This document shows positions 4,524 through 62,994 of a stretch of 64,000 nucleotides of DNA, in pieces. Location: positions 1,675 through 65,674 of the forward strand of contig CAIJFH010000027.1 in the NCBI GenBank assembly GCA_903819895.1. Reading direction: 5' to 3'. Below the pieces are notes generated by a model, which ran no database searches, was not told the DNA's origin, and saw nothing but the letters and a program-made list of their open reading frames with translations. How positions within the stretch are numbered: position 1 is the first letter of the stretch; every line of letters begins with the position of its first letter. This DNA is from Candidatus Adlerbacteria bacterium. Lineage in GTDB: Bacteria; Patescibacteriota; Minisyncoccia; Phycocordibacterales; SBAW01. The position numbers were made by a program, and so were the translations under genes.

Positions 4524-4590
4524 GTAAAAAGATACTACCACACCGCACTATTGCGTGCAACCAACTACATAGGACGGACCTATGTAGTGG

Positions 4591-5742
4591 TTACCGCAGT
4601 GTCTTAAGGAGGCGGGGGAGGGCGTCGATGCGGAGGGTAGTTTGGGACGAGTTGGTGGTCGAACGCAGGATGATGGTGCCATCGAGCGCCTCGCGCTGGC
4701 CCATGATGAGCAGGTGCGACACACCCATCTGCCGCGCGTTGGCGAGCTGTGGCGCTAAACTTTTTGCATCAAACGACTGCGACATTGGCACCTGCGCTTG
4801 GCGCAGCATGTCGACGACCGCGAGCCCTTGGAGTTTGGCGCGCAGCCCCAATTGGACAAAGTAGACCTTGGGCACCGCTGGTTGGGGCGGGGTGGCATAG
4901 CTCGTGCGGTCGGCACCTTTTTTGCGAAAGAAGATGCTCGCCGACACTGCGGCGGTATCTTTTTTGTTGAGCGTGCGACGCAAGTACTCGTCGTAGCGGC
5001 CGCCAACGCTGCTCATGATGGTGCCGTCCCCTTCGGGCAGGTCGATTGCAAACAGGATGCGCGGCTCGCGCTCGTCACCCACCAGCAAATCATCCAGCTC
5101 GTAGGGGAAGCCGAGTCCTTCGATATGCTCGAGCACCTCGCGAAAGTGCGCGCGGCTTTTCTCGGAGAGAAAGTTCATCGCGCGTGGGCCGCCCTCGAGC
5201 ACCTCGCGGCACACATCGTTGGTGCAGGTGTATGTGGCGCAGGGCGCTTGGCCGATGCGGGCGCGACAGGCGTCGTCGAGCTCGTGCGCATGGCGGCGCA
5301 GGTAGGCGGTCAACTCGCGCTCAAAGCGTGCCTTGGAGTCGCGGTCGCCCAGCGCGTTGATCCGGATGCGCGGCGCTTTGACGCCCCACTCGGTGAGGAT
5401 CGCAAACAATGTTTTGATGATAATCACCTCGCCGATGCTCTCGGGCGAGCCGATTACCTGCAGGCCAAACTCGGCTATCTCGCGTGGCAGGTGGGCAGGT
5501 GGCAGGTGGGTTGGCGATGGTGTCGCATAAAACGCGAGCACCGGCTCGCCTGCGCGTGCTTGCATCAGCGCTGCGCAGGTTTGCGCGGCGGTAGCAAAGG
5601 TGTGCGGCCCGCGCGGGCGCAGTGTTGCAGGGATGCCACGCTCGATCTCTTTAATGGGGCGAAATCCGTAGAACGTCGCCACATCGCCGGCACGTCGAAT
5701 AAAGGTGATGGGTGAACCTTGGGTGATTGGACTCATAGTCAC
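4591..5742 (-). CDS. hisS: Histidyl-tRNA synthetase-like class II aaRS protein (HisRS or HisZ-like paralog) with anticodon-binding domain and possibly degenerate motif 2
   Basis: GGRYDEYL (HisRS motif 3 GGRYD) is present. The central region is collinear with E. coli HisRS (FERELTAYLRRHAHELDDACRARI..., NFLSEKSRAHFREVLEHIEGLGFPYELDDLLVGDEREPRILFAIDL). The C-terminus VYFVQLG...LLIMGQREALDGTIILRS is a class II anticodon-binding fold. The motif-2 arginines are not evident (PSPTHLPPAHLPREIAEFGLQV). Confidence 0.65.
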   Translation of the reverse strand: MTMSPITQGSPITFIRRAGDVATFYGFRPIKEIERGIPATLRPRGPHTFATAAQTCAALMQARAGEPVLAFYATPSPTHLPPAHLPREIAEFGLQVIGSPESIGEVIIIKTLFAILTEWGVKAPRIRINALGDRDSKARFERELTAYLRRHAHELDDACRARIGQAPCATYTCTNDVCREVLEGGPRAMNFLSEKSRAHFREVLEHIEGLGFPYELDDLLVGDEREPRILFAIDLPEGDGTIMSSVGGRYDEYLRRTLNKKDTAAVSASIFFRKKGADRTSYATPPQPAVPKVYFVQLGLRAKLQGLAVVDMLRQAQVPMSQSFDAKSLAPQLANARQMGVSHLLIMGQREALDGTIILRSTTNSSQTTLRIDALPRLLKTLR

Positions 5743-9807: not shown

Positions 9808-10134
9808 ATGAAAAAATATTTGCATCATATAAAATCCAAGCCGACCCACGAGCGCCGCGAGCATGCGATGCGTGTTGCGGGCGTGGTGACCGCGCTGGTC
9901 TTTTTTGGGTGGATCAGTACACTGGGTGTGCGCTTGGCGATCCACAGCTCGGCTGCGTCGGTCGCGAGTGCAGGTGATTCGACCGCGAGTGGCGACAGTA
10001 CGAGCGCCAACCAAACGCAGTTGGCGGGCGTTGCCGCGGCAGACCAGACAACCAACACCGCGCAAGGTGGAGGCGACACCGACCCAAACGCCAACCATCT
10101 GGAGGTGGCGACAACCAGCGTCTTTGCGCAGTAG
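9808..10134 (+). CDS. Hypothetical small membrane-anchored protein
   Basis: The ORF has an N-terminal TM helix (VAGVVTALVFFGWISTLGV) and a Ser/Ala/Thr-rich tail. There is no recognisable domain. Confidence 0.45.
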   Translation: MKKYLHHIKSKPTHERREHAMRVAGVVTALVFFGWISTLGVRLAIHSSAASVASAGDSTASGDSTSANQTQLAGVAAADQTTNTAQGGGDTDPNANHLEVATTSVFAQ

Positions 10135-10164
10135 GTTCTCATCCCGCACACTTTTTCTATCCGT

Positions 10165-13302: not shown

Positions 13303-13408
13303 AAAATAGGTGCCAAGTATTTCTTCTGGCGCGTGTAGTAAGCAAGGCGTCGCCTTGCTAAAAAGCAAAAAAGCAAACCGTTGTCGAATTTTTTGCTATA
13401 CTTACGGT

Positions 13409-14940: not shown

Positions 14941-14999
14941 TATACAAAGGACAGTCCTTGGCATGCCGCCCGCGCGATTTTCTTTGCTACAATAGACGC

Positions 15000-15690: not shown

Positions 15691-15768
15691 CGCACCCTTA
15701 GCTCAGTTGGTAGAGCACACCCTTCACACGGGTGGGGTCGCAGGTTCGAGTCCTGCAGGGTGCACCAC
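15691..15768 (+). tRNA. tRNA-Val (anticodon CAC), CCA encoded
   Basis: The acceptor GCACCCT/AGGGTGC, D-arm GCTCAGTTGGTAGAGC, anticodon stem-loop CACCC-TTCACAC-GGGTG, T-arm GCAGGTTCGAGTCCTGC and a 3' ACCA are present. By my reading there are 2 extra nt between the D-stem and anticodon stem, possibly a transcription artefact of mine. Confidence 0.8.
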
Positions 15769-15914
15769 CCTGAGCAAGCAACCTGCGTTGCTTGCGTCAG
15801 GACGAGAAAGGCGGAGCATGTCGAGCCCAGCAGGGCGAGGCAGCGAGCCGGGGTCGCGGTCGAGGATGCGCGACGGCGCAGACGAGAACCGTGACCGAGT
15901 CGTTAGCAATAGTG

Positions 15915-15985
15915 CGGGCTGTAGTATACCGGTAGTACGCGCGCTTCGGGTGCGTGAAGACCGGGTTCGATTCCCGGCAGCCCGA
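15915..15985 (+). tRNA. tRNA-Pro (anticodon CGG), CCA not encoded
   Basis: The acceptor CGGGCTG/CAGCCCG, anticodon stem-loop CGCGC-TTCGGGT-GCGTG (G37) and T-arm CCGGGTTCGATTCCCGG are present. Confidence 0.75.
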
Positions 15986-16013
15986 CAAGTAGTGTAGAGT
16001 AAGTGAGACCGAG

Positions 16014-16055
16014 TTCGACCCGCCTGCCGGCGGGCAGGTTCCCGGCAGCCCGACA
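16014..16055 (+). terminator. Hairpin plus T-run after tRNA-Pro; contains second copy of tRNA-Pro 3' end (TTCCCGGCAGCCCGACA)
   Basis: The hairpin CTGCCGG-cgggcaggttc-CCGGCAG is followed by CCCGACAGAG and then TTTTTTT (16049-16055). Confidence 0.4.
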
Positions 16056-16102
16056 GAGTTTTTTTGTGTTACATTAATACGCGTGCCACATCGGCACGTT
16101 AG

Positions 16103-16173
16103 GGCCCATAGTTAAGTGGTAAAACGCTGCATTCGCATTGCAGAGGCGCGAGTCCGATTCTCGCTGGGTCCAC
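16103..16173 (+). tRNA. tRNA-Ala (anticodon CGC), G3:U70 present, CCA not encoded
   Basis: The acceptor GGGCCCA/TGGGTCC has a G3-U70 wobble. The anticodon stem-loop is CTGCA-TTCGCAT-TGCAG and the T-arm is GCGAGTCCGATTCTCGC. Confidence 0.8.
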
Positions 16174-25342: not shown

Positions 25343-25363
25343 TACGGAGGACGGACCTCCGTA
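25343..25363. repeat. Palindromic intergenic hairpin family with core GGACGGACC (copy after atpD; other copies 4565-4587, 42713-42733, 43423-43441, 49526-49546, 60637-60655; degenerate 45184-45202, 61659-61679, 62172-62188)
   Basis: The form is TACGGA-GGACGGACC-TCCGTA. The arms co-vary (CTACATA/TATGTAG in two copies) while the 9-nt core is constant in either orientation. Confidence 0.7.
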
Positions 25364-25372
25364 GTAGAAACT

Positions 25373-25621
25373 ATGAAAGTAATTATTGCAAAAGTTGATG
25401 AGACACTCTTCTCCGGCGACGCCGTGTCACTTACCGTGCCGGGGAGCGAGGGCGAGATGACGGTGCTCGGCGAGCACGAGCCGCTGGTGACGACACTGCG
25501 GCCAGGTGTCGCCATTATCCGCAGCACGCAGGAGGGAAGCAGTGAGTTTGCTGTGCGCGAAGTCGCGATCCCTGGTGGTCTGCTCGAAGTTCGCCGCGAT
25601 GGCGCGACCATCATCCTTTAA
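25373..25621 (+). CDS. atpC: F0F1 ATP synthase subunit epsilon, short form (82 aa, beta-sandwich only)
   Basis: The ORF is in operon position. The N-terminal beta-sandwich pattern is present. The C-terminal helical hairpin is absent. Confidence 0.75.
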   Translation: MKVIIAKVDETLFSGDAVSLTVPGSEGEMTVLGEHEPLVTTLRPGVAIIRSTQEGSSEFAVREVAIPGGLLEVRRDGATIIL

Positions 25622-42420: not shown

Positions 42421-42757
42421 GTGTTTTCTCCATAGTGTGTGTTGCTGTCAAAGATCTGCCGGAATACAAAAAACCCTCGGGCTTTGTATCCAGCCGAGGG
42501 GTTTCTAGGAGTGTGGTTTTCTAGTTCGATTACGAGGTCATACAAAATCCACGGCTGTATACAAGCTGGCTCTGCTCCTGCTTGTCGGAGACGACAGCAA
42601 AGAGCGCCCGGGTAGTCGGGGCAATAGCGCACGTATACATCTGGTGGACTGCGTATTTCATACTCTTACAAACTACACAAATATAGCCGTTGTGTCAATA
42701 CCTCGCAAAATACATAGGACGGACCTATGTAGACGGAGAATTTGCTATACTGCCGCT

Positions 42758-43417: not shown

Positions 43418-43488
43418 AGAATACGGAGGTCCGTCCTCCGTGGTGTGAGGAGGGTAGGAAAACTGGTGTATCGTGGTATACTGTTTGT

Positions 43489-45143: not shown

Positions 45144-45150
45144 AATGACA

Positions 45151-45171
45151 ATCCAAGGGTAACCCTTGGAT
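45151..45171. repeat. Palindromic intergenic element ATCCAAGGGTAACCCTTGGAT (copy 1 of 4; others at 45653-45673, 46538-46556, 62933-62952)
   Basis: The same 19-21 nt perfect palindrome (stem TCCAAGGG, loop TAA) recurs immediately 3' of stop codons. Confidence 0.7.
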
Positions 45172-45221
45172 TGTAGCGACCATGGATGTCCGTCCTCTGT
45201 AGAGTTTGCTATACTGCTGTT

Positions 45222-45650: not shown

Positions 45651-45701
45651 TCATCCAAGGGTAACCCTTGGATTGTGATAAAATACGCCCAGTTGTAGTA
45701 T

Positions 45702-46528: not shown

Positions 46529-46627
46529 TTGAGCTGTACAAGGGTAACCCTTGGATTATACAAAGGACTGTCCTCTGTACGCAAAAAGGTAATGCGCTAA
46601 ACATCTTCACTGTGCTATATTTCCATC

Positions 46628-47236: not shown

Positions 47237-47314
47237 TTACCAACACGTATACAAAGGACTGTCCTTGGTAGTGATGTGGTAGTCAAACCGGCGGATTTCA
47301 GTTACTATGCGGCG

Positions 47315-49519: not shown

Positions 49520-49558
49520 CATCACTACGGAGGTCCGTCCTCCGTATCTTGCATATAT

Positions 49559-53642: not shown

Positions 53643-54989
53643 ATGTTTCTGCACACCGAAGCAGCAAAGACCGCCGACAAGCTCAGCAGCAAAGGTGTCG
53701 AGCCCATTGTCGCCGCGAGTGCGTACCTTGTACTGCTTTGCATTTTTGTGACCATCTACGACCCGGGTGCGGTGTACAACTTTGTATTTTCGACCGTTGT
53801 CACCGCGCCGTTTTGGTTGCCGTTTTTTATGCTCACGATTTTTTGGATTATCTGGATGCACTATGTCCGCTTTGTATTCTTTTTCTCAAATAGAAATGTC
53901 TTGCTGGAGGTGCAGCTCCCGCCCGAGGTAGAAAAATCGCCACTGACAATCGAGCTCTTTCTCGCCACGCTCAACAACTCCGGCGGCGAGGCGACCATTC
54001 TTGCCCGCGCATGGAGAGGTCAACATCGTGCCATCTGGTCGCTCGAGATCGCCAGCAACGAGGGGCGCATCGGGTTTTATATCCGCACACGCGATGGCTA
54101 CCGCCACATTATCGAGGCGCGCATCTATGGCCAGTTCCCCGAGGCAAAAGTGTTCGAGGTAGACGACTATGTCAACCAAATCCCACCCGACACCAAGGGC
54201 TACACGGTGTGGGGCAACGAGTTTAAAAAAGGCGAACCACAAGCGCTGCCGATCCGCACCTATGTCGACTTTAAAATGGATAAGGATCCGAAAGAGGAGT
54301 TTAAGATTGATCCGCTTGCCAACCTGCTCGAGCTCTTGGGCCAAATCGGCCCAGGCGAACACTTGTGGTTTCAAATTATTCTCAAAGCACGCAAAGCAGA
54401 CGAGTGGTACGGTTTCTATCTCGATGGGGACAGCTACAAAGACGCTGCCAAAAAAGAAATCAAAGCGATTATGGCAGGAGCGGCGGCACGCGCAAAAGAG
54501 GTGATTGCCGAAAATGACATCACCGAGGGCAAGACGTCGCTCCTCACCGATGGCGAAAAGCGCCGCATCGACGCCATCGAGCGTGCCATGAGCAAGCCAG
54601 TGTTTGAGTGCGGCCTGCGCGGCGTGTACATCGCAAAAAATGAACTGTTTAACGGCATCAACGTGCCTGGCGTCATCAACCTTCTTGGACAATTTAAAGG
54701 CGGGGTAGAGTACAACGGCTTTATCCCCACCCGCGGCTTGGCGTTTATGGATTACCCTTGGCAGGATTATAAAGATTATCGCAAGAGCCGCATCGCCAAG
54801 CAGGTGTTTTTCCACTACAAGCATCGTGCATACTTTTACGTGCCGTACGACCAAGTGCCGGTCTTTCTCAATACCGAAGAGATCGCATCGCTGTGGCACT
54901 TCCCGGGCTCGAGCATCCGCACACCGGGGTTGTCGCGCGTACCGTCGCGCCGCGGCGAGGCGCCGGTCAATTTGCCGACGGGGCAATAA
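53643..54989 (+). CDS. Hypothetical membrane-anchored protein (2 N-terminal TM helices plus large Lys-rich soluble domain)
   Basis: The start is ATG 53643 (MFLHTEAAKT). There is no recognisable motif. Confidence 0.5.
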   Translation: MFLHTEAAKTADKLSSKGVEPIVAASAYLVLLCIFVTIYDPGAVYNFVFSTVVTAPFWLPFFMLTIFWIIWMHYVRFVFFFSNRNVLLEVQLPPEVEKSPLTIELFLATLNNSGGEATILARAWRGQHRAIWSLEIASNEGRIGFYIRTRDGYRHIIEARIYGQFPEAKVFEVDDYVNQIPPDTKGYTVWGNEFKKGEPQALPIRTYVDFKMDKDPKEEFKIDPLANLLELLGQIGPGEHLWFQIILKARKADEWYGFYLDGDSYKDAAKKEIKAIMAGAAARAKEVIAENDITEGKTSLLTDGEKRRIDAIERAMSKPVFECGLRGVYIAKNELFNGINVPGVINLLGQFKGGVEYNGFIPTRGLAFMDYPWQDYKDYRKSRIAKQVFFHYKHRAYFYVPYDQVPVFLNTEEIASLWHFPGSSIRTPGLSRVPSRRGEAPVNLPTGQ

Positions 54990-59873: not shown

Positions 59874-60746
59874 ATGAGCTCCTACTATAAACCACATCGC
59901 AACACGGGCTGGAACTATGGTGGCCGCAATTGGCGCCTCTCGCGCAGCAAAATCGCGCTCTTTGTCGAGTGCGCACGTTGCTTCTATATCGACAACAAGC
60001 TCGGCACGGCGCGGCCACCAGGGTTCCCCTTCAATCTCAACTCGGCGGTCGACGCATTGCTCAAGAAAGAGTTCGATATACACCGCACTGCTGCATCGTC
60101 ACACCCGATTATGCAGCAGTATGGCGTCGACGCGGTGCCGTACCAGCATGCCGAGATGGATATTTGGCGCGAGAACTTTAAAGGCATCGAGTTTCGCCAT
60201 CTGCCAACGGGCTTTACTATCGCGGGCGCGGTCGACGATGTGTGGGTCAACCCCCAAGGCGAGCTGATTGTCGTCGACTACAAATCGACCAGCAAGGATG
60301 AAAAAATCGATGCGCTCGACGCCGACTGGCACGACGGCTACAAGCGGCAGATGGAGACGTACCAATGGTTGCTGCGCCAGCGCGGGTTTAAGGTCTCCAA
60401 CACGGGCTACTTTGTCTATGCCAACGCGAGCAAAGATCGCCCCGCGTTCGACGGCAAGCTGGAGTTTGACCTCACGCTGATCCCGCATGTCGGCAATACC
60501 GACTGGATCGAACCAACCATTGCCAAACTCAAACTCTGCCTCGACAGCAACGCGCTCCCCGCCGCTGCACCCGACTGCGACTACTGCACCTACCGCCAAG
60601 CCGTCGAGGATGATTTGCGCGAACACGAGTCAAAACACGGAGGACGGACCTCCGTATCAAAAGAAGTAGAACCCACGCCAGCACCAGCCACAAAACCAGT
60701 AAGCAAAAAATCCAACAGCAGCGAACCAACGGGGCAGCTATTCTAA
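59874..60746 (+). CDS. Cas4/RecB-like PD-(D/E)xK nuclease with four-Cys cluster (orphan, no CRISPR context)
   Basis: N-terminal ECARCFY, the ELIVVDYKSTS core (D, E, K) and C-terminal PDCDYCTY are present. A palindromic GGACGGACC hairpin lies inside the 3' end (60637-60655), so the true stop may be earlier or the tail is a low-complexity extension. Confidence 0.65.
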   Translation: MSSYYKPHRNTGWNYGGRNWRLSRSKIALFVECARCFYIDNKLGTARPPGFPFNLNSAVDALLKKEFDIHRTAASSHPIMQQYGVDAVPYQHAEMDIWRENFKGIEFRHLPTGFTIAGAVDDVWVNPQGELIVVDYKSTSKDEKIDALDADWHDGYKRQMETYQWLLRQRGFKVSNTGYFVYANASKDRPAFDGKLEFDLTLIPHVGNTDWIEPTIAKLKLCLDSNALPAAAPDCDYCTYRQAVEDDLREHESKHGGRTSVSKEVEPTPAPATKPVSKKSNSSEPTGQLF

Positions 60747-60752
60747 CTACCC

Positions 60753-61406
60753 ATGGTTGAAACATCAACAGAAAAAATCATTTACCTTGTCCGACACGGG
60801 CAAACTCATGGGAACGTCGACCCAGTGTTTCAAGGTGTCGACTCAACGCTCAATACGACAGGACGCGAGCAAGCGGAACAAGTAGCGCAACGTGTTGCAA
60901 GATTATCTTTCGATACATTGGTTGCAAGCCCGCGCATGCGCACAAGGGAGACAGCTGAGATTATCGCCCGAGCAACTGGCAAAACTCCGGAATATGCGGA
61001 CGTGTTTGTCGAACGCACCAAACCAACACGCGTCGATGGCAGACCATACACAGACACCGAAGCAAATGCACTCTGGCAGTTATGGGAACAGAGCATCTAT
61101 ACACCGGGCATGCGCGCAGAGGATGGCGAAAATTTTGATGACATTATTGCACGTGCGGACAAGGCGCTCGATTTTCTCCAAAACCGATTCGAACAAGCGC
61201 TCGTGGTCGTAACACATGGACACTTTTTGCGCACACTTGTTGCCCGCATTTTGCTCGGCAGTTCTCTTACTGGCGATAATTTTAGACACTTCCAAGCGAG
61301 CATCAAAACAGAAAATACGGGTATCACTGTATTGAAGTATGACGCAGCACGAACAGAAGCGCCTTGGCGTTTGTGGATCTATAACGACCATGCACATCTT
61401 GGATAA
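60753..61406 (+). CDS. Histidine phosphatase family protein, paralog 2
   Basis: LVRHGQT and VVTHGHF are present. Confidence 0.8.
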   Translation: MVETSTEKIIYLVRHGQTHGNVDPVFQGVDSTLNTTGREQAEQVAQRVARLSFDTLVASPRMRTRETAEIIARATGKTPEYADVFVERTKPTRVDGRPYTDTEANALWQLWEQSIYTPGMRAEDGENFDDIIARADKALDFLQNRFEQALVVVTHGHFLRTLVARILLGSSLTGDNFRHFQASIKTENTGITVLKYDAARTEAPWRLWIYNDHAHLG

Positions 61407-61665
61407 ATCAACATCTTTCGCCGAGCGCGTCCGCGCGGTTGTGGCGCAAATTCCGAAAGGCGAGACAATGACATACCAGCAAGTGGCAACGAAGGCGGGG
61501 AACGCAAACGCTGCGCGAGCGGTTGGCACAGTGATGTCAAAGAACTTTGACCCGAACATCCCGTGCCACCGGGTCGTCCGCTCCGACGGCACACCTGGTG
61601 GGTACAACCGCGGCGGGAGTACTCGCAAAGCAGCACTCCTCCAAGCCGAACACTCGCACACATAG
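61390..61665 (+). CDS. Methylated-DNA-protein-cysteine methyltransferase DNA-binding domain protein (Ogt C-terminal domain only)
   Basis: The PCHRVV active-site motif and the ETMTYQQVA helix are present. The start ATG 61390 overlaps the previous gene by 17 nt. Confidence 0.75.
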   Translation: MHILDKSTSFAERVRAVVAQIPKGETMTYQQVATKAGNANAARAVGTVMSKNFDPNIPCHRVVRSDGTPGGYNRGGSTRKAALLQAEHSHT

Positions 61666-61691
61666 GTCCGTCCTTTGTGCTGCGAAACAAC

Positions 61692-62126
61692 TTACTCGCC
61701 TGACATCTCTGAAAACGCGACACCTTGTTTGATGAGGGGGAGTGCAGCGGCGACTTCTTCAACAACGTTTGTACCAAGCTCGGCGAGCGTCGCCCAGCGC
61801 AAGTCGCCGATTTTCTCTGGCTCGTTGTTGACGGGCTCGCCCTGCCACTTGGTGGTGGTGAAAAAATACTCAACAAGAATGTCCTCGCGATACAGCACAT
61901 GCACAAAACGTAGGTCGTCCGGAGCAATATCGATACCAACCTCCTCTTTTGCCTCGCGAATCATCGCCTCGGTTGGGAGCTCGCCCAGGTCGACATGTCC
62001 TGCGGGCAAGCTATAAAAACCCTCGTGGTAGTCGGTATTTTTCCGCTGTGCAAAAAGATATGTACCATCTTTCTCCAGCACCAAATACACCGCCACCCGC
62101 ACCCGGAGTCGCTCGGTTGTTGTCAT
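61692..62126 (-). CDS. NUDIX hydrolase
   Basis: The Nudix box GHVDLGELPTEAMIREAKEEVGI is present. Confidence 0.8.
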   Translation of the reverse strand: MTTTERLRVRVAVYLVLEKDGTYLFAQRKNTDYHEGFYSLPAGHVDLGELPTEAMIREAKEEVGIDIAPDDLRFVHVLYREDILVEYFFTTTKWQGEPVNNEPEKIGDLRWATLAELGTNVVEEVAAALPLIKQGVAFSEMSGE

Positions 62127-62209
62127 ACTTCAAAGATACCACATATCCATATTGCGACTATATGTCCGTCCTCTGTGCCCCTCTATACCAACTCTTGTAT
62201 ACTAACTGC

Positions 62210-62929: not shown

Positions 62930-62994
62930 CTCATCCAAGGGTAACCCTTGGACAGCCGCTTTTTATATAGAGAGTTCTTCGGTATACTGCCCAC

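Follow-up and report, generated by a model that had tools for sequence, protein, structure and literature searches.

Described repetitive extragenic palindromic (REP) elements fall into superfamilies defined by an unpaired tetranucleotide, GTAG or CGTC, at one end (PMC3733652), and the 5' GTAG is needed for binding and cleavage by the Escherichia coli enzyme TnpA_REP (PMC3479197). The REP-associated tyrosine transposases (RAYTs) are found as one copy per genome, are vertically inherited and are flanked by 16-mers that are abundant genome-wide (Bertels 2017, PMC5581495). Here we describe a family of short hairpins with the core GGACGGACC in a 64,000-nt stretch of Candidatus Adlerbacteria bacterium (contig CAIJFH010000027.1, positions 1,675 to 65,674 of the forward strand), which we call the window and number from its first letter. 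We consider it likely that these hairpins are REP-like elements of a bacterium of the Candidate Phyla Radiation (CPR) near Adlerbacteria (Paceibacterota), and part of a REP/RAYT-type system. It would represent a variant form of these known systems in a host group where none was expected, as CPR genomes are among the smallest and most streamlined bacterial ones and are not known for repeat families. The top-ranked literature showed no link between REP/RAYT systems and CPR hosts, a preprint on mobile elements in compost containing each term once; the RAYT survey papers checked contained no CPR terms, and a search with the core GGACGGACC gave nothing relevant among top-ranked papers.

The likeness to the systems of E. 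coli (TnpA_REP/YafM) and Pseudomonas, where REP doublets are known as REPINs, has several sides. In both cases palindromes of about 20–30 nt are numerous and lie for the most part outside genes, many of them a short way past a gene end; some form mixed tandem clusters that resemble the bacterial interspersed mosaic elements (BIMEs). The same palindromes flank a Y1/HUH transposase gene, here in related genomes; the protein has the HUH and tyrosine motifs, and its structural model is best matched by TnpA_REP (4ER8); the gene has a conserved genomic position, here next to mraZ; and transposase lineages carry palindrome types of their own, though here not simply by phylogeny. A preliminary description of the window had offered three readings of the hairpins: a genome-wide REP-like element, an RNA 3'-end stabiliser or terminator, or a protein-binding site with a recognised loop. 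The first is supported by the finding that the same hairpins bracket a gene for a RAYT-like HUH/Y1 transposase in related CPR genomes, and the third is compatible with it, since the invariant loop and closing pairs would be the part read by the transposase. The second is taken up below.

An invariant core within changing but paired arms

Seven exact copies of GGACGGACC are distributed over both strands of the window (cores at 4572+, 25349+, 42717+, 43428-, 49532-, 60642+ and 61665-), against 0.46 expected and a maximum of two in dinucleotide shuffles. Each centres a hairpin, in agreement with the initial proposal of at least six good copies whose core is constant in either orientation. Matches with one mismatch are found at chance level (11 observed, 12.6 expected), and the core is therefore sharply defined. 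The inverted repeats around the seven cores are perfect or nearly so, and when aligned on the core all seven copies read (T)AC-xx-A-GG-ACGGA-CC-T-xx-GT(A). Folded as single-stranded DNA, every exact copy forms a stem of 7–10 bp closed by the loop ACGGA; the folding energies are -6.2 to -10.3 kcal/mol and the z-scores relative to shuffles -3.0 to -5.7, and the element length of 19–27 nt agrees with the short-palindrome criterion for REP elements. The arms are ACGGA/TCCGT in four copies, ACATA/TATGT in two and ACAAA/TATGT, with one mismatch, in the remaining one. Hairpins of the general form arm-GG-N5-CC-arm number 15 in the window and 1.85 in shuffles. Hairpin density is about 1 per 9 kb.

When species-representative genomes were scanned for the hairpin pattern, matches came mainly from metagenome-assembled genomes (MAGs) of Candidatus Paceibacterota, Adlerbacteria, Nomurabacteria and Saccharibacteria, and in CPR MAGs of 30–58% GC the same 19–21-mer is present in multiple copies per genome. 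The claim that the arms differ and nevertheless pair holds in the window and is much stronger in metagenomes, which were scanned with two positions of each arm left free in the pattern. In this check of complementarity outside the window, both free positions were complementary in 51 of 127 matches, compared with 1/16 by chance. The matches comprise at least 11 arm types, the commonest being AG/CT, GG/CC, GA/TC and AA/TT. Among 140 unique copies from contigs below 60% GC the two free positions pair in 78% and 71%, compared with 26% and 33% among 27 copies from high-GC sequences, which are chance matches. Conservation thus applies to the pairing of the arms but not to their sequence, and the 11-nt centre A-GG-ACGGA-CC-T is invariant. 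Most of this covariation consists of different arm types fixed in different genomes rather than of independent compensatory changes at one site. Indeed, one arm type mostly prevails per genome, with all copies GG in JBAYJV01, AT in E14 and GA in the L162 group, which points to amplification or homogenisation within the genome. A phage-borne element was ruled out, as arm complementarity in viral contigs is at chance level (2 of 16 copies fully complementary). Well-paired hairpins with long extended arms were also seen in MAGs labelled as non-CPR (L013, Bacteroidales; L018, Oscillospiraceae; L035 and L077, Anaerolineaceae), which could reflect binning errors or a wider distribution.

Hairpins around a RAYT-like transposase gene

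All examined CPR contigs with a gene for an HUH/Y1 transposase of about 220 aa have hairpins of this architecture on either side of it, within about 60 nt. Type A hairpins, those with the GGACGGACC core, enclose seven distinct transposase genes and usually recur once more, in frame, within the coding sequence; the hairpins around four further genes keep the architecture and differ in the loop. The loci reached via the hairpin (L025/L055, L021, L053, L044, L121 and L158/L162) hold an open reading frame (ORF) of 220–235 aa with type A hairpins on both sides. For example, the 235-aa ORF of L025 (JBAYJV01) has hairpins 19 nt past its stop codon, 27 nt before its start codon and within the gene, and a similar arrangement is found in L021 (E14), L162, L044, L053 and L121.

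As an independent test, contigs were fetched via the transposase protein alone and not via the hairpin. In every such contig for which DNA was available, the gene is flanked on either side by hairpins built in the same way. Two of these loci have type A hairpins: L175/L176 (P0003), with CCCATAGG arms and an additional copy inside the gene, and L179 (P0008; 52% GC), with the CTACGGAGG (GG) arms of the window and four copies in 1.8 kb. Other loops accompany the remaining genes. The hairpin of L164 (Adlerbacteria A3D70) reads ACATAGG-GTTAC-CCTATG, the core type of a third palindrome family of the window (see below), that of L177/L178 (P0005) reads ATACATAGG-CCAGA-CCTATGTA, a further loop type, and L166/L167 (P0106) and L168/L169 (P0110) share the form ...AAGG-TTCCA-CCTT... 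In both of the latter, hairpins within 20 kb are found only at the transposase gene, so that hairpin density does not account for the association. The flanking hairpin types recur at dispersed sites in JBAYJV01, E14 and I3b, but not within 20 kb in L166 and L168. The GG-CCAGA-CC hairpins lie at 321, 355 and 1062 of L177/L178, and the GG-TTCCA-CC hairpins at 9960–10705 of L166 and at 10163 and 10673 of L168. E14 has a second transposase paralogue, 40% identical to the first, with GGAC(C/G)GTCC motifs before, inside and at the end of the gene; in sequence these resemble another palindrome type of the window (type B, below).

The in-frame cognate hairpin inside the transposase genes is located at two or three different positions depending on the lineage (L025 6065, L044, L162 at 506, L021 4290, L175 3538, L179 1629, and L166 and L168 10163). 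Its arms follow the arm type of the genome even where this changes the amino acids, as in YGGPSSV, NRGPSSV and NEGPSFV. Such a target copy within the gene could serve self-regulation or keep the copies of a genome alike. The transposase gene adjoins mraZ in three related contigs. It was also seen between an aminoacyl-tRNA synthetase gene and mraZ-rsmH in L021 (2125–5554), L175, L176 and the P0004 locus, a position that suggests a stable, vertically inherited transposase locus. Many of the transposase-bearing contigs are just 1–2.5 kb long, fitting assembly breaks at the flanking repeats, and with many of them only 1–2 kb long it is probable that these repeats break metagenome assemblies.

The encoded protein carries the motifs (F/L)MPNH(I/F)H(L/I)L and Y-I-H-x-N-P and matches the Pfam family Y1_Tnp (PF01797) at 29–45 bits (cut-off 23), its sole NCBIfam match being the REP-associated tyrosine transposase NF047646. 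Alignments of 22 and of 39 diverse sequences show no variation at the HUH histidines (H-x-H) or at the tyrosine and asparagine of the Y-x3-N motif. The homologues comprise 4,548 proteins at E ≤1e-10, with about 56–86% identity to the query among the matches listed, and the named source organisms are all CPR (Adlerbacteria, Ryanbacteria, Parcubacteria, Paceibacterota). An AlphaFold model (pLDDT 90.6) has its best Protein Data Bank (PDB) match in 4ER8_A, E. coli TnpA_REP bound to a REP hairpin (E 6e-7, target-normalised TM 0.70), followed by the TnpA proteins of IS608, IS200 and ISDra2 (E ~1e-4). The IS200/IS605 elements and palindrome-associated transposable elements (PATEs) likewise depend on a Y1 HUH transposase that recognises imperfect single-stranded DNA hairpins. 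Unlike those elements of 100–400 bp with distinct left and right ends, the CPR unit is a bare hairpin of about 21 nt, and a multi-copy transposase was not seen in the CPR data. A tblastn search of 1.09 Mb of hairpin loci with an IS200 TnpA sequence as query found no IS200-like protein.

On this basis, a RAYT-like HUH/Y1 tyrosine transposase of about 220 aa, whose gene would lie in another part of the genome, would have the hairpins as its cognate DNA sites. In single-stranded DNA, for instance at a replication fork, an element would fold into its hairpin of 7–10 bp, and the enzyme would read the invariant loop and closing pairs (A-GG-ACGGA-CC-T), with the outer stem needing only to pair. By cutting and rejoining single-stranded DNA the enzyme would copy or move the element of about 21 nt, mostly to intergenic places, and the same copying would make for uniform copies within a genome. 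We infer from the analogous E. coli TnpA_REP (PMC3479197) that the transposase would bind and cleave this hairpin and could mobilise copies of it; the genome of the window presumably encodes such an enzyme too. A REP/RAYT model of this kind would account for an invariant asymmetric core that occurs in either orientation, for arms that need only pair, for the single arm type per genome, mixed hairpin clusters and turnover at matching sites, and for in-frame 21-nt insertions in proteins and the bracketing of the transposase gene.

Several observations weigh against a REP/RAYT-type system. No transposase homologue was found in the 64-kb window, and the search for the transposase of the window's own genome gave none, the nearest being those of the E14 genome (L021), which is 73–76% identical to the window, and of contig L179. 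The NF047646 score of 42–48 bits is under the equivalog cut-off of 80, and PDB matches by sequence only are weak (E 0.04–0.9). Two transposase lineages with only about 35% identity to each other both go with type A loops, while transposases 60–68% identical to the E14 enzyme carry other loops; the loop type thus does not simply follow transposase phylogeny. Unlike the described REP elements, the CPR hairpins have no unpaired 5' GTAG or CGTC tag and conserve instead the loop and its closing pairs. Their ends are paired (TAC...GTA, AAC...GTT or CCC...GGG), and GTAG occurs only as the paired 3' end of some arms. In contrast to REPINs, the copies are mostly single rather than inverted doublets, a few inverted pairs being found outside the window in L011 and downstream of the L166 transposase gene. 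Finally, no hairpin gain or loss was seen among strain contigs 99.3–100% identical to the window, which gives no sign of recent mobility. Further differences from the known systems concern the protein, which at about 220 aa exceeds the usual 150–165 aa, has an extra C-terminal region, scores under the equivalog cut-off just mentioned, and has an in-frame hairpin copy in its ORF.

It is possible, and we propose it tentatively, that CPR (Paceibacterota) carry a distinct, ancient and largely vertically inherited REP/RAYT class in which the transposase would read the loop and its closing pairs without a 5' guide tetranucleotide. Loop 'dialects' (ACGGA, GTTAC, TTCCA, CCAGA and GGAC-N-GTCC) may then mark enzyme lineages. 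The conserved family of transposases, with over 4,500 members and hairpins to match, suggests that REP/RAYT-type systems persist even in CPR, and natural variants in which the stem architecture is constant and the loop is not could reveal how HUH enzymes recognise a DNA hairpin that lacks a GTAG guide. The hairpins also put 7-codon segments into proteins, and they could serve as markers of Paceibacterota lineages.

Position, orientation and turnover of the copies

All type A copies of the window except one lie where they had been placed at the outset; the copy reported at 42713–42733 is in fact at 42711–42731. The first hairpin (4564–4588, +; ACTACATAGG-ACGGA-CCTATGTAGT, AT arms, 10-bp stem) lies 2 nt past the stop codon of a HisRS-like gene (4591–5742, minus strand) and upstream of the next minus-strand gene. 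The copy at the centre of the preliminary description (25343–25363, +; TACGGAGG-ACGGA-CCTCCGTA) occupies the spacer from the atpD stop (25342) to the atpC start (25373). The hairpin at 42711–42731 (+; TACATAGG-ACGGA-CCTATGTA, AT arms) separates two divergent genes; about 15 nt downstream of it is the TGcTATACT box of a DUF218 gene (start 42758), and 5 nt past the stop of that gene (43417) there is a copy with GG arms and its core on the minus strand (43423–43441). GG arms and a minus-strand core are also found at 49526–49546, 6 nt past the stop of a DUF5671 gene (49519) and 12 nt ahead of the leuS start (49559). The GG-arm copy at 60637–60655 (+) is in frame within the C-terminal tail of a PD-(D/E)XK protein ORF (59874–60746), where it encodes HGGRTSV. 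The last exact core (61656–61683, -), with the arm mismatch ACAAA/TATGT, overlaps the TAG stop of an MGMT-like gene whose convergent neighbour is a Nudix gene (61692–62126, minus strand). Six of the seven are therefore extragenic or overlap a stop codon. Genes flanking the window hairpins include atpD, a short atpC, leuS, the HisRS-like gene, ybeY, DUF5671, DUF218 and Nudix. The atpC gene (25373–25621) encodes 82 aa only, corresponding to the N-terminal beta-sandwich of the epsilon subunit without the C-terminal helical part. The 711-nt spacing of the cores at 42717 and 43428 was considered as transposase-sized (compare L021) and rejected, as the enclosed gene is DUF218.

Two of three proposed degenerate relatives were recovered as decayed type A copies with the core GGACGGACA on the minus strand, namely ACAGAGGACGGACATCCAT at 45182–45200, just upstream of a TGcTATACT box, and ACAGAGGACGGACATATAG at 62158–62176, between divergent genes. 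The third, placed at 61659, is the exact core with one arm mismatch described above.

The frequent location at gene ends raises the question whether the hairpins are primarily RNA elements, acting as 3'-end terminators or in protection from exonucleases, with a loop read by an RNA-binding protein. Like Rho-independent terminators, they are stable hairpins close past stop codons: five of the seven window copies are at or within 6 nt of a stop codon, four of them 0–6 nt past it (4564, 25343, 43423 and 49526), and across genomes 29 of 69 unique copies lie within 45 nt past the stop of an ORF of at least 100 aa. Canonical terminator-like sites are not enriched in the window (16 vs 13.6 expected), so that other 3'-end structures might be needed, and a T-run follows the hairpin in some AT-rich CPR contigs (L044, L105, L118). 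However, the orientation of the core relative to the transcribed strand is random. Among those 69 copies, scored by a stop-codon test in place of a cruder gene-context classification that was dropped for its spurious long ORFs, ORFs of at least 100 aa ending within 45 nt upstream were core-sense in 10 cases, antisense in 13 and both (convergent) in 6; window copies divide 2 vs 3. Transcripts would thus display the loop ACGGA from some copies and UCCGU from others, leaving an invariant asymmetric loop unexplained. In contrast to Rho-independent terminators, whose hairpins are followed by a U-tract, no T-run was found past any window hairpin on either side, and the invariant, asymmetric loop occurs in both orientations. 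Copies are moreover located between divergent genes (42711 and 62158), inside ORFs (60637 and the transposase genes) and in the atpD-atpC operon junction. The G·T and A·C mismatches in hairpin copies, as a measure of G·U-type pairing, have no strand preference, and in a gathering-score scan of the window with Rfam 15 only three tRNAs matched. We therefore regard a primary role in RNA as unlikely, and the corresponding suggestion of the preliminary description was not upheld. Individual copies just past stop codons may additionally act as 3'-end hairpins of mRNAs, a role that would not define the family, and the hairpins might have been co-opted as usual gene-end structures where a genome of about 1 Mb offers few canonical terminators. 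Sequestration of a Shine-Dalgarno sequence by GG-arm copies (GGAGG/CCUCC) was dropped, as other arm types lack this sequence and the spacing to start codons is at least 22 nt; likeness to the MS2 operator hairpin was judged superficial, being one of shape only.

Sites in double-stranded DNA for a host protein not involved in transposition, such as a global regulator or nucleoid protein, a signal for DNA uptake by the competence machinery that CPR rely on, or a recombinase site, would also explain why very different genomes share one asymmetric core that does not vary and can face either way. At some TATACT promoters the -35 position is overlapped by a copy (42711, 45182), and differences in gene content with the Adlerbacteria relative I3b_bin-425 (hereafter I3b) coincide with hairpin-bearing junctions. 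Neisseria DNA uptake sequences (DUS) and Pasteurellaceae uptake signal sequences (USS) are likewise short, invariant, orientation-independent motifs common to related genomes, and DUS also occur as inverted pairs that form terminators. Known uptake sequences are present at roughly 1 per kb, however, a density about ten times that of the CPR hairpins, in which a single, asymmetric core lies in the loop of arms that vary yet pair, and which are linked to a transposase gene. A protein that binds the duplex gives no reason for arms that are complementary and yet change, nor does it predict the bracketing of an HUH transposase gene, including where no other hairpins are nearby. Such sites are accordingly a very improbable explanation.

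The turnover of the hairpins was followed at matching sites in relatives. I3b is the closest, with 82–88% nucleotide identity, followed by the C24 bin and E14_metabat.bin.253 at about 73–76%, and contigs near-identical to the window are present in lake metagenomes and in GCA_903934455.1. At the I3b site past the HisRS-like gene the core is flipped, GG arms replace AT arms and an extra type B hairpin overlaps, while at the atpD-atpC junction a different, partly degenerate hairpin replaces the 25343 copy, which is identical in the strain-level contigs L038–L043. The hairpin at 49526, before leuS, is kept in I3b and absent from the more distant C24 bin, and the I3b counterpart of the intragenic 60637 copy is retained with its core mutated to GGACGGACA. 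From these comparisons the family appears strongly conserved and single sites labile, as would be expected for copy-and-paste elements with a conserved enzyme. An I3b hairpin pair (L016) was considered as flanking a transposase and rejected, since it encloses a different, unannotated ORF of 207 aa without transposase homology.

Decayed copies, such as those at 45182 and 62158 and the intragenic one of I3b, together with the absence of polymorphism among strains, would also suit inert relics left by an old spread of palindromes or by local template-switch repair, with no factor acting now. Such relics would not be expected to retain an 11-nt centre identical across genomes of 30–58% GC, nor arm types that are homogeneous per genome and followed by the copy in the transposase ORF. 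Moreover, a family of over 4,500 proteins whose catalytic residues do not vary points to ongoing selection and activity, and we give almost no weight to the relic explanation.

Other palindromes and features of the window

Besides the type A hairpins the window carries two further palindrome families. The predicted variants of the form GGAC-N-GTCC were found and constitute type B, with ACAAAGGAC-A-GTCCTTGGC at 14944–14962, ACAAAGGAC-T-GTCCTCTGT at 46560–46578 and ACAAAGGAC-T-GTCCTTGGT at 47251–47269. A third family (type C), (AT)CCAAGGGTAACCCTTGG(AT), was absent from the initial list and comprises ACAATCCAAGGGTAACCCTTGGATTGT at 45148–45174 (13-bp stem, -12.4 kcal/mol), ATCCAAGGGTAACCCTTGGAT at 45653–45673, a short form CAAGGGTAACCCTTG at 46539–46553 and TCCAAGGGTAACCCTTGGA at 62934–62952. 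Mixed-type clusters are present in two places, with members 7 nt apart in each: the type C palindrome at 45148 with the decayed type A copy at 45182, and the type C palindrome at 46539 with the type B palindrome at 46560. Transposase-linked counterparts of types B and C were found at L022 and L164, the type C core type flanking the transposase gene of Adlerbacteria A3D70 (L164). As judged from sequence, all three palindrome families of the window thus appear to have transposase-linked counterparts in relatives, type B by resemblance.

Between the window (60509–62130) and I3b (L032), gene content diverges precisely where the junctions bear hairpins. A histidine-phosphatase gene (60753–61406) is present in the window and lacking in I3b. 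Conversely, the MGMT-like and Nudix genes, separated by just a hairpin in the window, have an additional gene of about 0.8 kb between them in I3b. A strain that is otherwise 99.9% identical (L171) carries a divergent replacement segment of about 340 nt (53651–53987), which looks like a recombination tract and has no hairpin association.

The three tRNAs of the window form a cluster at 15692–16173 (Val-CAC, Pro-CGG and Ala-CGC). Finally, a -10-like box, usually (TG)nTATACT, precedes the ATG by 5–8 nt (usually 6) in 16 ORFs of at least 50 codons, compared with 0.56 in shuffles. These boxes lie at 13397, 14988, 26485, 27035, 31365, 40413, 42746, 43477, 45210, 53628, 57237, 62198 and 62983 on the plus strand and at 642, 6323 and 19465 on the minus strand, and their proximity to the ATG suggests many leaderless mRNAs in the genome of the window.

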